Shown here one piece after another: positions 6,363-11,351 of a stretch of 14,577 bases of DNA. Numbering within the stretch: position 1 is the first letter of the stretch; each line of letters opens with the position of its first letter. The position numbers and the translations under genes were made by a program. The notes under the pieces were generated by a model. That model saw only the letters and a program-made list of their open reading frames with translations. It was not told the DNA's origin and searched no databases. Source of the stretch: a virus; the UHGV virus genome UHGV-1333726; one strand, 5' to 3'.

Positions 6363-6432
6363 CTCTATCGNNNNNNNNNNGATAAACGCGGTGATTTTGG
6401 GAAGTGGAATTTGAGAATAGATTCCAGATTCA

Positions 6433-7251: not shown

Positions 7252-7853
7252 GCCGCCTTTCTCCTTAAGGCGTCTAATTTCGCCTGATAAACTTTAATGA
7301 TCTCCTTACATTCTTCGATCGTCCATTTGTGAGTTTCGTTATTATTTTCTAATGCCTCCACCCTTTCTAATCCTATTTTTTTTATTAAATTTATTCTGTA
7401 TAACTCAACATTGCCGTCTAATACCTGATTGCAATGTCGGCATTGTAGGTTTACGTTATCCTCGTTAAATCGAAGGTGTCCGGCTGCCGCTACTGTGCGC
7501 CAGTGTCCAGCATCAGCGCCGCATTGTTCGTAATAATAAGTCCCGCAAGATATACACGGCTGACCCGCGTCACGCTCGCGTATATAAGCGTTAAAAACGT
7601 TTTGTGCCTGTTTAATCCAGTAGCTACGCGGATTTAACTGTTTCCGTTTCCGGTTGCGTTCTTCCCGCTGGCTATCACGGCGTTTCTTCCGCTCCATAGC
7701 CTTCATAGCCTTTTCACGATCGCGGCATAGCTGATCAAACTTCAGTTCTTCCAGACATTCATCGCTGCACCACGTTTGATTGTGATATTTAGGCTCAAAA
7801 AAAACGCCGCAGCATTTGCAACGGCGTCTTATAGGTTTTTTAGGGTTCTGCAT
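7248..7853 (-). CDS. ninG: NinG/Rap recombination protein
   Basis: ATG 7853 (ORF-track start 7943 is an upstream extension); RRRCKCC...YHNQTWCS...PRSYWIKQAQNVFNAYIRERD...PCISCG...HKWTIEECK closely parallels lambda NinG. Confidence 0.85.
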   Translation of the reverse strand: MQNPKKPIRRRCKCCGVFFEPKYHNQTWCSDECLEELKFDQLCRDREKAMKAMERKKRRDSQREERNRKRKQLNPRSYWIKQAQNVFNAYIRERDAGQPCISCGTYYYEQCGADAGHWRTVAAAGHLRFNEDNVNLQCRHCNQVLDGNVELYRINLIKKIGLERVEALENNNETHKWTIEECKEIIKVYQAKLDALRRKAA

Positions 7854-7867
7854 AAAAACCACCCCGA

Positions 7868-8044
7868 TTATTTTTGATTCTCTGTTTCGTTCAGCCTTTC
7901 GGCGTGTCCGGCCCTTAGCCAATGTTCTAAGCATTCGTTGCACTCGTTACAGCCTCCTTTCTTCGTGCTGCATACATTGCACATTGCACGCATGACGCTT
8001 TCTCGTTCATAGTCGTCATGCCATTGGTAATTATCAAAAGTCAT
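7868..8044 (-). CDS. ninF: NinF-like small Cys-rich protein (58 aa)
   Basis: Manually found ORF ATG 8044 to TAA 7868; MTFDNYQWHDDYERESVMRAMCNVCSTKKGGCNECNEC...; position immediately upstream of ninG and Cys-rich character as in lambda NinF. Confidence 0.5.
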   Translation of the reverse strand: MTFDNYQWHDDYERESVMRAMCNVCSTKKGGCNECNECLEHWLRAGHAERLNETENQK

Positions 8045-8161
8045 AATGCTCTCTCCTTTTCAGGTGATTTCTACGCATTTCAGCGCTGCCGGATTTTTAA
8101 AGAGCATTTTGTTTGCTTGAAGTATACAAAATGGATACACCAGAACAAGGCGAAAAGCGCC

Positions 8162-8181
8162 ATTATGTGATCCATATCACG
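8162..8181. promoter_or_regulatory. palindromic GATC-containing motif (candidate operator), site B
   Basis: Forward strand aTTATGTGATCcatATCACg: GTGAT-N4-ATCAC palindrome with GATC at 8169-8172, in the 159-bp gap upstream of ninF; shares TTATGTGATC-N3-ATCAC with site A at 11746-11763. Confidence 0.4.
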
Positions 8182-8203
8182 CAATGACGCCATTTTGTAA
8201 ACT

Positions 8204-8962
8204 TCAGTCCGGTAAAACGCGGTCATGGTTAGCCAGGAATACAGCACGGGCAAAGCCACGCGGTGTTAGTGAGCGGATCATCTTTGTTCGTTTCGTCCTG
8301 CCTCCGGTTTTCGCCCACCCAGGGTTATCACCAGAGTTAAGATCTACAGGTCTAAAAAGCGGCTGCCTGAATCCGTTGCCGCACCATATGCAAGTTTTCT
8401 TCGTGTACGCGTCGCGCGGTGGGTAAACATCAGGGAAAGCAGGATGCTTGTCATCTTCCGGCAGGTAGCCACCGTAAGCGCAAGGATTGAAGATAAAATC
8501 CGGTTTACGCCATAGCGTTGACAGCACACCAACAGGATTCTCCACCATCCACGGCACGTTATACATGTTAGCCAGAGATTCAACCAACATTGCGTTTCTT
8601 GCCGCCCTATTCTGAAAACAAGGATCTTTCCTGTATTTATCAACGAACCAGCGAGCGCCTGACACAGCGAGATCGTCGCATGGAGGAAAGCCCAGGATAA
8701 TGTCAGGCCCTGGATAAACAGACAATTCAGGGGAGAACATTCCCAGGAAATGGCTATCAATCCAGATGTTAACGTATTCAATATTTGGATGAATGATTTT
8801 AACGCCTTCATAATCTCCGTGATTTGCGCCGTCATAGTTGAAGCAATAGCACTTATATCCAGCTTCCGCCCAATCTTTAACGGCGTACCCGCTGCCGTCG
8901 TACAGCGACCACACCACCCAACTTCTAAGCCAATTATTTAACCAATGTTTAGCCCTGCTCAT
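8204..8962 (-). CDS. compact C5-methyltransferase-fold protein (putative DNA cytosine-5 methyltransferase-like enzyme)
   Basis: ATG 8962 overlaps TGA of upstream gene (ATGA); motif I-like LYDGSGY (res 21-27), GFPPCDDLAVSGAR (res 91-104, cf. M.HhaI GFPCQAFSISGK) and VENP (res 140-143, ENV-like) in canonical order and spacing; only 252 aa, no obvious QRR or target-recognition domain. Confidence 0.6.
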   Translation of the reverse strand: MSRAKHWLNNWLRSWVVWSLYDGSGYAVKDWAEAGYKCYCFNYDGANHGDYEGVKIIHPNIEYVNIWIDSHFLGMFSPELSVYPGPDIILGFPPCDDLAVSGARWFVDKYRKDPCFQNRAARNAMLVESLANMYNVPWMVENPVGVLSTLWRKPDFIFNPCAYGGYLPEDDKHPAFPDVYPPRDAYTKKTCIWCGNGFRQPLFRPVDLNSGDNPGWAKTGGRTKRTKMIRSLTPRGFARAVFLANHDRVLPD

Positions 8963-9462
8963 TTTCTACCCTCAAACGTGAAATAGCGGCGCATAATGAT
9001 GGTGATCACCGTTACCGCTGCCATTTTTGAGATGAATTGCATAGCTGATATTTCCGGCATAAATGCCATAAACGATAGCGTAGGAAAAATTAACGCATCG
9101 CCGATGGCGGACGCTATATTTGCAGGCCAGCGTTTCGAATCGAAATCACCAGGTAAAACCCGGTAAACGCCGCCAGAAATAAGCGCACCGGAAACAACCG
9201 CAACGAATGACGCGATCGCCACCATTCCTGCGTCGTAATTTATCAGCACCGTGATTGCGCCAGCGGCGGCGCATGTTGTAGCCGACCATTTCAGACCGCC
9301 GTCATATAACAGAAAGTCGCGGATCATCATATTGACACACACGGCGGCTACCGTGGTGATCGGAATTACCCACGGGCCGCAGTGGTTAACAATAAGGTTG
9401 ATGATCACAAAAACGGCGACATAAACGCAGGCTAATAACCTGTCAATCGTCACCCTTTCCAT
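8959..9462 (-). CDS. polytopic membrane protein, VUT/YhhQ-like (putative queuosine-precursor transporter family)
   Basis: ATG 9462 with GAAGGA upstream (ORF-track start 9537 would overlap upstream gene by 95 nt); about six hydrophobic segments; NIASAIGDALIF resembles the recalled YhhQ C-terminal motif; family assignment tentative. Confidence 0.45.
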   Translation of the reverse strand: MERVTIDRLLACVYVAVFVIINLIVNHCGPWVIPITTVAAVCVNMMIRDFLLYDGGLKWSATTCAAAGAITVLINYDAGMVAIASFVAVVSGALISGGVYRVLPGDFDSKRWPANIASAIGDALIFPTLSFMAFMPEISAMQFISKMAAVTVITIIMRRYFTFEGRK

Positions 9463-9934
9463 TTTTATGATCCTTCGGTGTATACAATAAAGCCTCTTTA
9501 TTAAACCGCCAGCCGTTACCAAGCTGGAAGCTACCATTCATTATTACTTCACCACTAGCGATTAGGTCGCCTGGTATTGAGGTTTTCTTACAGCGGCAAT
9601 TTAACGACATATCAAAATCACCCTGTTTTTTCTTTTGCTCTTCCTCCCGCTCCGCTAATATTTGCTCCGCTTTTAGCGCGTTGTAAGCAATAAGGTCTAT
9701 GAGAGTGTCGAGCGGATCGCTTCCATTGCTTAAAATGGCCTCTAATCGCGCCTCCTTGAGGCAAATCATTAGATCCCATACATCAAGCGGGGTTAAACTT
9801 GTCCCCTTCTTAGCGTTGTAAATAGTGGCTATTTTTGGCGCTGATTTTTCTTCTTTTCGATCGTATCCGTTTTGTTCTCCTCTTGCCTCGATAGTTTCAG
9901 CCGCAAGTCTCAGCAATTCAGCCGCTTTATTCAT
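9443..9934 (-). CDS. hypothetical protein (163 aa), helical N-terminal domain
   Basis: ATG 9934 with GAGGTG upstream, 2 nt after dam stop (ORF-track start 9952 overlaps dam); conserved-looking LTPLDVWDLMICLKEARL segment; no family assigned. Confidence 0.55.
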   Translation of the reverse strand: MNKAAELLRLAAETIEARGEQNGYDRKEEKSAPKIATIYNAKKGTSLTPLDVWDLMICLKEARLEAILSNGSDPLDTLIDLIAYNALKAEQILAEREEEQKKKQGDFDMSLNCRCKKTSIPGDLIASGEVIMNGSFQLGNGWRFNKEALLYTPKDHKNGKGDD

Positions 9935-10466
9935 TTTCTGCACCTCTTGCATATAGCTCTTTACGTGTTATCTGCGTGAAAATACATTCATGTCTGCATC
10001 GTGGATGCCAGATCAAGAACAAGCTCCCTTTATTGTTTCCACTTGCTGGTTTACCTGTTGCAGCATTGATAAACGCCAGCCGCCCGCGCGTGATTAATCG
10101 GCATTCGTTTGCAGTCTCCACGCCGTTCATAAACCAGCTAACAGAAATGTCAGCGGGCAACAACATCACGCAACCGATGTGATTCCGTTGATGTTCGAGC
10201 GCCGCTTTATCAATAAATGGACCCGGATTTGAGTATGGCGGATTCATCCATACATATTCGCCAGGCATTGCCACCGCTCCCCACGGATAAGTAAGCGTGT
10301 CCATTTCTTCGGTTATATATCGCGGGATTAATGCGTTTGCCTTGTTTGCCGCCACGTCAGCGACAAATTCAAACTCGCGGTCCATTCCTCTAAAAACTGG
10401 TTTAGGTGTCTGCCACAGGTCTTTAATTTCCTTCGGTGTGCTGCTGCCTCCAAAATCATTTTTCAT
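9927..10466 (-). CDS. dam: phage Dam-family DNA N6-adenine methyltransferase
   Basis: ATG 10466 with AAGGGGGG upstream; N-terminal DLWQTPKPVF...FEFVADVAA and catalytic VWMNPPYS (NPPY variant of DPPY) are signatures of the phage Dam family. Confidence 0.85.
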   Translation of the reverse strand: MKNDFGGSSTPKEIKDLWQTPKPVFRGMDREFEFVADVAANKANALIPRYITEEMDTLTYPWGAVAMPGEYVWMNPPYSNPGPFIDKAALEHQRNHIGCVMLLPADISVSWFMNGVETANECRLITRGRLAFINAATGKPASGNNKGSLFLIWHPRCRHECIFTQITRKELYARGAENE

Positions 10467-10476
10467 TACGCCCCCC

Positions 10477-10710
10477 TTAAAAATAATCTTGTTCAGTCCC
10501 CCAACGGTTGTTTAAATACCCAACCAACCACACAAAACGCTCAATACTGATTAGCGGGGCGACCTTGCGATAATGCTTGTCGAGTATCAGCCGCGTGGCT
10601 TTATCGCTGTAGCCGTTCTTTTCTACCTCCGTTTTGCAGGCAGAAAGCGCCGCGCGTGCGGCAGTTTTTACGGCGTTAAATTGCGGCTCTGACAGGTTAA
10701 ATAAAGCCAT
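10477..10710 (-). CDS. hypothetical protein (77 aa)
   Basis: ATG 10710, 1 nt after upstream stop; ORF-track start 10767 overlaps upstream gene. Confidence 0.45.
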   Translation of the reverse strand: MALFNLSEPQFNAVKTAARAALSACKTEVEKNGYSDKATRLILDKHYRKVAPLISIERFVWLVGYLNNRWGTEQDYF

Positions 10711-10711
10711 T

Positions 10712-10939
10712 TCATAAAACATCAGTAGAATCAGCGAAAAAGAACCCAACAAATACACTAACAGCAATAATGATCCTTAACATATAAAGCGCATCATCAG
10801 GTGATGGCATTTCTGGTAGTTCCCATGTAACAAAAGACACACCGCATAAAATTCCAATAAGAACCGTAGCTATACATGAGAATACAAAAAAAGAACAAAA
10901 TAGCCAGCCCATAATAAAGTCAATAAGTGCACGCATCAT
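10712..10939 (-). CDS. small two-TM membrane protein (75 aa)
   Basis: ATG ATG at 10939/10936 (ORF-track start 10954 is TTG); two long hydrophobic segments. Confidence 0.5.
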   Translation of the reverse strand: MMRALIDFIMGWLFCSFFVFSCIATVLIGILCGVSFVTWELPEMPSPDDALYMLRIIIAVSVFVGFFFADSTDVL

Positions 10940-10940
10940 T

Positions 10941-11114
10941 CTAAACGTCCTCAATCACACCGCCTTTCACGCGCTCTTTAATATCCCATACGTGAGGCTT
11001 GCATATTTCCTGATAATAGTGATCCGGCCTGCTGCCGAAATACCATTTGCCATCCATATAAAAATAAACGCCAGAAAAATTTCCTGGCGCTGCCTTTGTT
11101 GTCATGATATACAT
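10941..11114 (-). CDS. hypothetical protein, 5' end uncertain (abuts N run)
   Basis: Manually found frame ending TAG 10941; first ATG 11114 but frame stays open upstream into the N run 11129-11138. Confidence 0.3.
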   Translation of the reverse strand: MYIMTTKAAPGNFSGVYFYMDGKWYFGSRPDHYYQEICKPHVWDIKERVKGGVIEDV

Positions 11115-11156
11115 AGGTGCAGCCCCGANNNNNNNNNNTTCCAGTCTTTATAGTGT

Positions 11157-11351
11157 TTAAACTTCATGAGCTTTTAAATAACCTCTTCTGAATGCTTTGA
11201 TGTAAAGTCCTAGCCTTCTTATATGCTGAACACCATCAATGAGGCGCACTAAATAAATCGCCCCGTTTGCGTCAGATACAAAACGACAACCAAAACCAAT
11301 GCCGACTAACTTCAGGTTTTCAGGTATTCTATAATCAGTTTCCTGTTCCAT
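11157..11351 (-). CDS. hypothetical protein (64 aa)
   Basis: ATG 11351 with GAGGTGAGG upstream. Confidence 0.5.
   Translation of the reverse strand: MEQETDYRIPENLKLVGIGFGCRFVSDANGAIYLVRLIDGVQHIRRLGLYIKAFRRGYLKAHEV

Follow-up and report, generated by a model that had tools for sequence, protein, structure and literature searches.

Positions 8204-10466 of the UHGV virus genome UHGV-1333726, analysed here as a window of 14,577 nucleotides (the whole stretch of DNA examined), carry four co-directional, overlapping genes on the minus strand. In order of reading, they encode a predicted Dam-family methylase, a DUF6378 protein, a short YhhQ/QPTR-type permease and a compact Dcm-like C5-cytosine methyltransferase. 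Together they probably represent an accessory cassette of mEp021-type phages, in which two orphan anti-restriction methylases and the DUF6378 protein are combined with a permease of the 7-deazaguanine type that has no DpdA partner. The cassette is real, conserved and already annotated. An earlier note, made from the letters of the sequence, had proposed a pathway in which import of a base or cofactor precursor is coupled to DNA hypermodification or anti-restriction; this hypothesis suits the relatives of the permease, not this phage. Overall, we regard the region as mostly ordinary anti-restriction methylases accompanied by one orphan transporter of modest interest.

Layout, conservation and lineage of the cassette

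The Dam gene (10466..9927, 179 amino acids (aa)) is followed by the genes for the DUF6378 protein (9934..9443, 163 aa), the membrane protein (9462..8959, 167 aa) and the C5-like enzyme (8962..8204, 252 aa), all on the minus strand. Consecutive genes overlap, in minus-strand reading, by 8 nucleotides at the Dam/DUF6378 junction (ATGAATAA, 9927-9934), by 20 nucleotides at the DUF6378/permease junction (9443-9462) and by an ATGA at the permease/C5-like junction (8959-8962). Shine-Dalgarno-like sequences (GGGGGG, GAGGTG, AAGGA and GAGGG) were found 5' of all four starts. A longer open reading frame (ORF) of 169 aa, starting at 9952, is possible for the DUF6378 gene, and the mechanical ORF of the permease gene starts at 9537 (192 aa); homologues of the former all begin at MNK/MTK and those of the latter at MERV/MNR, which gives 163 and 167 aa, respectively. 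The starts chosen for both proteins in the earlier note match these N-termini. Its description of the block was likewise borne out by reading the sequence as far as the ORFs, their boundaries and the three overlaps are concerned; what it had omitted was the minus strand, on which all long ORFs of the window lie. The window holds no tRNA gene.

Positions 8000-10700 matched, at 87-91% identity, the temperate "non-lambdoid" coliphages of the mEp021 group, which are Nus-dependent (mEp010, mEp013, mEp021, mEp044, mEp515, mEp554 and MagusPhagus). The best matches of the window were E. coli prophages, at 93-94% identity. Among the 5,426 complete E. coli genomes, 35 carried the block in a prophage (up to 94% identity), and in 30 of these it spanned 80% or more of the query. 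The four-gene order was kept in mEp021, MagusPhagus, the prophage of E. coli GF66.2 and contig L004, whose proteins were 52-65% identical to those of the window. Since the same order recurs in these four, the arrangement is a conserved one and no chance juxtaposition.

In mEp021 (GenBank MH706966), the counterparts are gp30-gp33, already annotated as a putative N6-adenine methyltransferase, a hypothetical protein, a putative membrane protein with six transmembrane (TM) helices and a putative cytosine methyltransferase. RefSeq names the products phage N-6-adenine-methyltransferase, DUF6378 protein and hypothetical protein, followed by either DNA cytosine methyltransferase or hypothetical protein. 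The block shares with gp30-gp33 of the mEpimmI group (PMC11893012) the same four genes, their order and their genomic position, with 89-90% DNA identity, and the window differs in being another member of the group. In the published annotation of mEp021, the YhhQ/QPTR-like nature of gp32 and the DUF6378 identity of gp31 went unnoticed. The practical gain of this work is mostly one of annotation: the gp32-type proteins of mEpimmI phages, listed so far as "membrane" or "hypothetical", are short permeases of the YhhQ/QPTR superfamily.

By analogy with mEp021, where gp30-gp33 precede NinF, NinG, RusA and a Q-like antiterminator and are flanked by the predicted terminators t3 and t4, the cassette would belong to a delayed-early operon that depends on an N-like antiterminator. 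It would sit between t3 and t4, just upstream of nutR2 and of the NinF/NinG/RusA/Q genes.

Two methylases and a DUF6378 protein

The 179-aa product matched PF05869 over its full length (E = 3e-51, 173.9 bits; cut-off 28.1) and the NCBIfam equivalog TIGR01712 (137.4 bits; cut-off 97.05), as well as phrog_111 and the PADLOC orphan methyltransferase model. Its catalytic motif, NPPYS at residues 75-79, conforms to (D/N)PPY, and the two scores above their curated cut-offs uphold the Dam call that had been drawn from this motif. By these matches, the protein is a routine predicted Dam-family N6-adenine methyltransferase of phages, with nothing notable to set it apart from the family, and its target, extrapolated from relatives, is presumably GATC.

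The 252-aa product gave no match at E <= 1 against Pfam, including DNA_methylase (PF00145), although a few of its homologues have a precomputed PF00145 match. It matched phrog_757 "DNA methyltransferase" (2.5e-86), and the phrog_757-type family comprises more than 7,500 proteins of approximately 227-260 aa, with 1,476 phage records. Its motifs are DGSG at residue 22 (motif I), GFPPCDD at residue 91 (with FPPC as motif IV), ENP at residue 141 (motif VI) and RSLTPRG at residue 230 (within RSLTPRGFA, motif IX). Among 44 homologues, the GS of DGSG (G23, S24), PPC (P93, P94, C95), ENP (E141, N142, P143), WR and RSLT.R were invariant, a set that corresponds to motifs I, IV, VI, VIII and IX of the C5-methyltransferase pattern. 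Counted on the sequence, only about 70 residues separate motif VIII from motif IX. The protein ends in ..FLAN(H), and the invariant terminal Asn of its ..AN, N245, may stand in for motif X. A single-sequence search of the PDB yielded nothing useful; when the family profile was used, all 13 weak matches were C5 methyltransferases, with DNMT3B/M.HaeIII reaching only E = 0.23.

A firmer assignment came from KarlJaspers/Bas06 (MZ501090), whose 236-aa "Dcm-like C5 cytosine methyltransferase" shares 60% identity with the 252-aa protein over 232 residues (E = 1e-103). Its C82, E128 and K175-176 align with C95, E141 and K188-189 at identical spacing. In the Drexlerviridae phage K42, a 711-bp dcm gene gives rise to 5-methylcytosine (5mC) at CCWGG, as determined by liquid chromatography-mass spectrometry, and triggers retron Ec86, and the C82A/E128A/K175A/K176A mutant is inactive (bioRxiv 10.1101/2023.08.16.553469). 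K42 and KarlJaspers are 95.4% identical genome-wide according to the same study; the alignment presented here was made with the KarlJaspers protein. The enzyme of the window has the C5-methyltransferase fold, in the compact DNMT3-like form that it shares with the K42/KarlJaspers Dcm, and differs from the latter in a 13-residue N-terminal extension, a short C-terminal tail and its temperate-phage setting. The earlier note had called a compact C5-methylase-fold enzyme from GFPPCDD and ENP; both motifs stand where it had read them and the call holds through the KarlJaspers identity, even though PF00145 itself gave no match. We therefore predict a compact Dcm-like C5-cytosine methyltransferase of a known and partly characterised family, probably acting on CCWGG as does its K42/KarlJaspers relative.

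Alternatively, the enzyme could transfer a non-methyl group, for example carboxymethyl from the host's carboxy-S-adenosylmethionine (Cx-SAM) as CmoX does, and so provide a handle for further modification. CmoX is marked by SPPC and by replacement of the motif-X Asn with Arg (PMC12783734), whereas FPPC and the terminal N245 were invariant in the 44 homologues. Further, no CmoA or CmoY-type ligase is encoded nearby, and the 60%-identical K42-type Dcm yields 5mC (bioRxiv 10.1101/2023.08.16.553469), all of which makes such a transfer most unlikely. The 252-aa protein was also considered as a mis-annotated transglycosylase and rejected, as BLASTP against the DpdA-like proteins encoded next to permeases in other phages revealed no similarity.

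For both methylases, homology, fold and motifs are established by the comparisons, and we infer the sequence specificities and an anti-restriction effect. The Dam and Dcm-like enzymes would methylate replicating phage DNA with S-adenosylmethionine and thereby allow escape from restriction in new hosts. Neither of the two orphan methylases that flank the permease needs an imported substrate; that simple methylation does not require a membrane protein had been remarked in the earlier note. The "putative cytosine methyltransferase" of these phages also shares its family with the Dcm that triggers retron Ec86, so these prophages may be sensed by retron Ec86. A third DNA methyltransferase was noted outside the window: mEp021 gp05 (L008 2836-3573), located beside NinB, matched PF01555 N6_N4_Mtase (E = 5e-36), and the lineage therefore holds three orphan methylases.

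The 163-aa protein, left unassigned in the earlier note, now has a family but still no assigned function. It matched DUF6378 (PF19905) over residues 13-96 (E = 2.4e-7, 31.3 bits; cut-off 27.1) as well as phrog_474/9871, and 238 homologues were found, mainly in E. coli prophages; all those listed carry PF19905. In the alignment, the N-terminal ~100 aa were conserved and helical and the C-terminal ~60 aa variable and mosaic, and common variants of 135 and 99 aa lack the C-terminal ~60 residues. This C-terminal third (9443-9640, minus strand) is a mosaic even between otherwise close phages, so that the whole protein is 61-80% identical between them, compared with 98-99% for the neighbouring permease, and several BLAST matches to the block were split in two for this reason. 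As regards function, the literature offers none, a single-sequence PDB search returned nothing useful and the profile search a chance-level coiled-coil match only, and the AlphaFold2 model (predicted local distance difference test score of 54.7) was not usable. A PHROG label, "phosphofructokinase", was discarded because every other search left it unsupported.

The short permease and its DpdA partners elsewhere

About six hydrophobic segments can be distinguished in the 167-aa membrane protein, which matched phrog_4899, a PHROG of unknown function (1.3e-46). Against Pfam Vut_1 (PF02592), it scored 12.0 bits (gathering score 27.2; E = 0.27), with an alignment that covered positions 6-149 of the 152-position profile. 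A word-indexed search retrieved only 12 close relatives, while an exhaustive search by HMMER, started from a profile of seven sequences, gave 257 representative clusters of relatives, mostly of 155-180 aa, and 128 of the 131 relatives scanned matched Vut_1 at E <= 0.01 (best 1.9e-16). In line with this, a 131-sequence profile aligned by hhalign with E. coli YhhQ over 142 columns (94.6% probability, E = 7.3e-8); the shallow seven-sequence profile was insignificant in the same comparison, significance being reached only with the larger one. Shared with YhhQ/QPTR (PF02592, COG1738) are a predicted multi-pass membrane character, homology over ~142 columns, an RD in TM2, ASxxA and (S/T)N…D(S/T)xxF. 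The differences are its length (167 compared to 221 aa), the sub-threshold Pfam score and the replacement of one conserved Asp. We conclude that the protein is a short and divergent member of the YhhQ/QPTR (Vut_1, COG1738) superfamily, placed there through its relatives rather than by a direct Pfam match. The YhhQ-like call of the earlier note is thus sustained by the relatives and by hhalign, the Pfam check of the single sequence having remained below threshold.

Some 25 relatives of 280-340 aa (within P0271-P0383) carry, after a hydrophobic linker, a C-terminal extension that appears rich in beta structure and in many cases terminates in F/W-R-R, and two of them match DUF5020. Such an extension would be odd for an inner-membrane permease, and merged gene calls could account for it.

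The permease was under the strongest purifying selection of the four genes. When the window was compared with mEp021, GF66.2 and MagusPhagus, the ratio of nonsynonymous to synonymous substitution rates (dN/dS) was 0.011-0.026 for the permease (dS 0.20-0.36), 0.05-0.09 for Dam, 0.12-0.21 for the C5-like gene and 0.23-0.28 for the DUF6378 gene. The very low value for the permease indicates a working gene, and its ORF was intact in seven of seven isolated phages. Natural deletion variants exist all the same, and the permease is therefore not essential to the lineage. In protein P0010, Dam residues 1-34 are fused in frame to permease residues 87-167 at a shared FVA microhomology (L032 3001-3348; L033 774-1121); at least 11 contigs carry this fusion, followed in each case by an intact Dcm-like gene. 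The natural variants further include two permease::Dcm hybrid ORFs, and proteins P0007 and P0012 are listed among them.

These data bear on the idea that the permease is an inert remnant of a permease-DpdA module in which DpdA was replaced by the Dcm-like gene. The latter occupies exactly the position of DpdA in other phages, the T1-like phage LHE71 has both modules within 3 kb, and deletion and hybrid variants occur. The selection analysis contradicts an inert gene, as do the intact ORFs of the isolated phages and the high coverage of the block in the 30 E. coli genomes mentioned above, and we give this idea hardly any credence.

The protein might also be a former QPTR turned into a membrane-acting accessory factor, such as one for superinfection exclusion, a lysis-timing modulator or a toxin. 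Its short length, the lost Asp and the missing partner enzyme would fit such a role, the P0253, P0258 and CRP-701 lineages likewise have no DpdA neighbour, and the adjacent mEp021 gene ipe has pleiotropic host effects. On the other hand, the permease retains most of the positions conserved across the family (N22, G29, R48-D49, A82, A84-S85, N115, D122, F126, F131 and K146) and aligns with the full-length Vut_1 profile. Further, PADLOC assigned it to no defence family, as was also the case for the DUF6378 protein and the C5 enzyme (three of the four products), and its gene is part of an early lytic operon and is not placed like a moron expressed in lysogeny. On balance, an accessory factor of this kind is quite unlikely.

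As to the substrate, E. coli YhhQ imports preQ0 and preQ1 (PMC11130926), and the gene neighbourhoods of the short permeases point in the same direction. By tblastn against 50,697 phage records, the short permease was found in only about 24. Seventeen independent contexts outside the mEp021 lineage, a non-random sample drawn from the best-scoring relatives, were examined, and a DpdA-type gene accompanied the permease in 14 of them. In PEAT2, AB3P2, Opt-719, Tbat1_6, LHE71, RCIP0319 and Phc, the permease gene abuts or overlaps a phrog_887 "queuine tRNA-ribosyltransferase" (DpdA-like) gene of 243-275 aa (PHROGs, E = 1e-62 to 1e-86). A local hidden Markov model (HMM) detected a phrog_887-type partner in the same arrangement in ECO111 5-P, L017 and L023, and one gene away from the permease in Pam5. 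In Aoka, L026 and L027/28, the permease is paired with a phrog_15826 protein, which the Aoka record names a DpdA-like transglycosylase and which gave a distant alignment with the phrog_887 proteins (64% by hhalign, E = 6e-5). No DpdA-type neighbour was found in the remaining three contexts, namely the P0253 clade, P0258 and CRP-701. In addition, protein P0340, encoded at positions 121-957 of a 1-kb metagenome contig (L018), carries a weak QueF-like match (PF14489) N-terminal to a short VUT permease, and this domain fusion links the permease branch to 7-deazaguanine metabolism. Based on the pairing in 14 of 17 contexts and on the QueF fusion, the substrate of the short permeases is most likely a 7-deazaguanine base (preQ0/preQ1).

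The situation in the mEp021-type lineage was different. A DpdA HMM built from seven phrog_887-type proteins was run against six-frame translations of the window, mEp021 1-29277, MagusPhagus 1-50000, the GF66.2 prophage and L004, and its best E-value in these five was 0.67, compared with 1e-100 to 1e-150 for the positive controls. Pfam searches of the larger unassigned proteins of the lineage found no tRNA-guanine transglycosylase (TGT) domain. At the level of annotation, no que, folE or transglycosylase gene was recorded in mEp021, MagusPhagus (PHROG-based) or the RefSeq prophage. The search for dpdA, que and folE genes that the earlier note had called for thus returned none in the composite mEp021-type genome. 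Since all phages known to contain 7-deazaguanines encode a DpdA (PMC10516641), and none was found here, 7-deazaguanine in the DNA of a mEp021-type phage is unlikely. This sets the cassette apart from the 7-deazaguanine clusters of other phages (CAjan folE-queDEC-yhhQ-dpdA and DpdA-only phages; PMC6884629, PMC7544227, PMC10516641). It has in common with them a phage-encoded YhhQ-type permease, YhhQ homologues of phages having been noted by Hutinet et al. 2019 (PMC6884629), and close relatives of the permease are paired with a mini-DpdA, but the lineage itself has no detected DpdA or preQ0 synthesis genes and the adjacent enzymes are methyltransferases.

The coupling of import to hypermodification, as first proposed, is accordingly supported for the permease relatives, with their DpdA neighbours, and not for this phage, where plain methylases flank the permease. 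That the four genes nevertheless form such a pathway, with an imported base or cofactor precursor built into phage DNA as 7-deazaguanine or another non-methyl modification, would be in keeping with the DpdA-type neighbours and the QueF fusion found elsewhere, with the translational coupling and strong conservation of the permease gene and with a DUF6378 protein that could hide an activity. Moreover, phages once considered "DpdA-less" were later shown to carry divergent DpdA3/DpdA4 (PMC10516641). The negative searches above argue in the opposite direction, as do the 60% identity of the neighbouring enzyme to a plain 5mC-forming Dcm and the common variants in which Dam, DUF6378 and half of the permease are gone but the Dcm-like gene is kept; we therefore consider a pathway of this kind improbable.

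In the reading that we prefer, an accessory cassette with an orphan permease, the protein would be an inner-membrane protein of about six helices from the short, phage-borne branch of YhhQ/QPTR. It would raise the intracellular preQ0/preQ1 pool for the host tRNA-guanine transglycosylase during lytic growth, which is the most likely role for it and the weakest step of this account. Several points weigh against the reading. The permease by itself falls below the Vut_1 gathering score, is shorter than E. coli YhhQ and has Ser96 in place of the Asp of the DxxVY motif that most relatives conserve. Transport of preQ0/preQ1 by the short branch is suggested by gene association, and E. coli already has YhhQ and a full preQ1 pathway, so that an extra importer looks redundant; in CAjan, deletion of the yhhQ gene within the 7-deazaguanine cluster left DNA modification unchanged in rich medium (PMC7544227). 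The DpdA search relied on an HMM of one subfamily, with other DpdA subfamilies covered through annotations and through Pfam scans of the larger unassigned products, and could have missed a very divergent transglycosylase. As for the methylases, the presumed GATC and CCWGG specificities are extrapolated from relatives, and in the BASEL collection resistance to restriction showed no simple link to methylase genes of this kind (PMC8594841).

A phage without a recognisable DpdA might also keep the permease for an undescribed use of the imported base, either reprogramming of the host's queuosine tRNAs in lytic growth or an unrecognised base exchange for which DUF6378 would be a candidate; we hold this to be unlikely. 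The role of a queuosine-precursor-type importer in a phage without a DNA transglycosylase is a modest biological question.

The pairing seen among relatives constitutes a two-gene module, in which a mini-DpdA (phrog_887, 243-275 aa, or phrog_15826, ~200 aa) accompanies a short permease of the QPTR/VUT type (155-175 aa). The module recurs in T1-like coliphages, PEAT2 and Acinetobacter, Arthrobacter and cyanophage genomes. It was located at L005 5992-7217, L006 5273-6465, L007 5980-7283, L010 3974-5232, L011 3956-5259, L012 3956-5256 and L013 3971-5267, and further in L017, L019, L020, L021, L023, L026 and L027. Many of its DpdA-like genes are annotated merely as hypothetical proteins. For DNA-modification specialists, the module marks, as a by-product of this work, candidate phages with salvage-dependent 7-deazaguanine DNA. 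In LHE71 (Tunavirus), ~2 kb from the permease-DpdA pair, a Dcm-like gene is broken into two ORFs that overlap (L011 1127-1860, minus strand), an apparent frameshift or sequencing error.

Flanking elements and further observations

All elements described here are on the minus strand. Upstream of the block, a terminator-like hairpin with an 11-bp stem and a T-run (11067..11091) is equivalent to mEp021 t3, TERM_3 being annotated at the equivalent place of mEp021. The position equivalent to the predicted terminator t4, just downstream of the C5-methyltransferase gene, is 8157..8190; it corresponds to TERM_4 at L001 9158-9191, given a window-to-L001 offset of 1001 and an alignment without insertions or deletions. 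Our own terminator scan made no call at this position, where t4 is a prediction only. Together, t3 and t4 bracket a unit of gp28-like, ipe-like, Dam, DUF6378, VUT and Dcm-like genes.

A nutR2-like element was found at 8074..8106, in agreement with the placement of nutR2 downstream of the methyltransferase gene in the mEp021-type phage (PMC11893012). It comprises a boxA-like TGCTCTTTA followed by a small predicted hairpin with an A-rich loop (GCGCUGAAAUGCGU), whose folding energy was no better than that of shuffles, and it is a unique exact match. The element is 100% identical in four phages, in which the flanking genes differ by ~10%.

A scan of 7800-11300 against Rfam gave nothing credible. 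GATC and CCWGG occur 65 and 33 times in the window, counts that are uninformative on methylase specificity. Masked bases occur as two stretches of exactly ten N, at 6371-6380 and 11129-11138, which each fall within a small minus-strand ORF outside the block. Directly upstream of Dam, the ORF at 10477-10767 is the counterpart of mEp021 ipe ("inducer of pleiotropic effects") and shares the terminator-bounded unit with the four genes.

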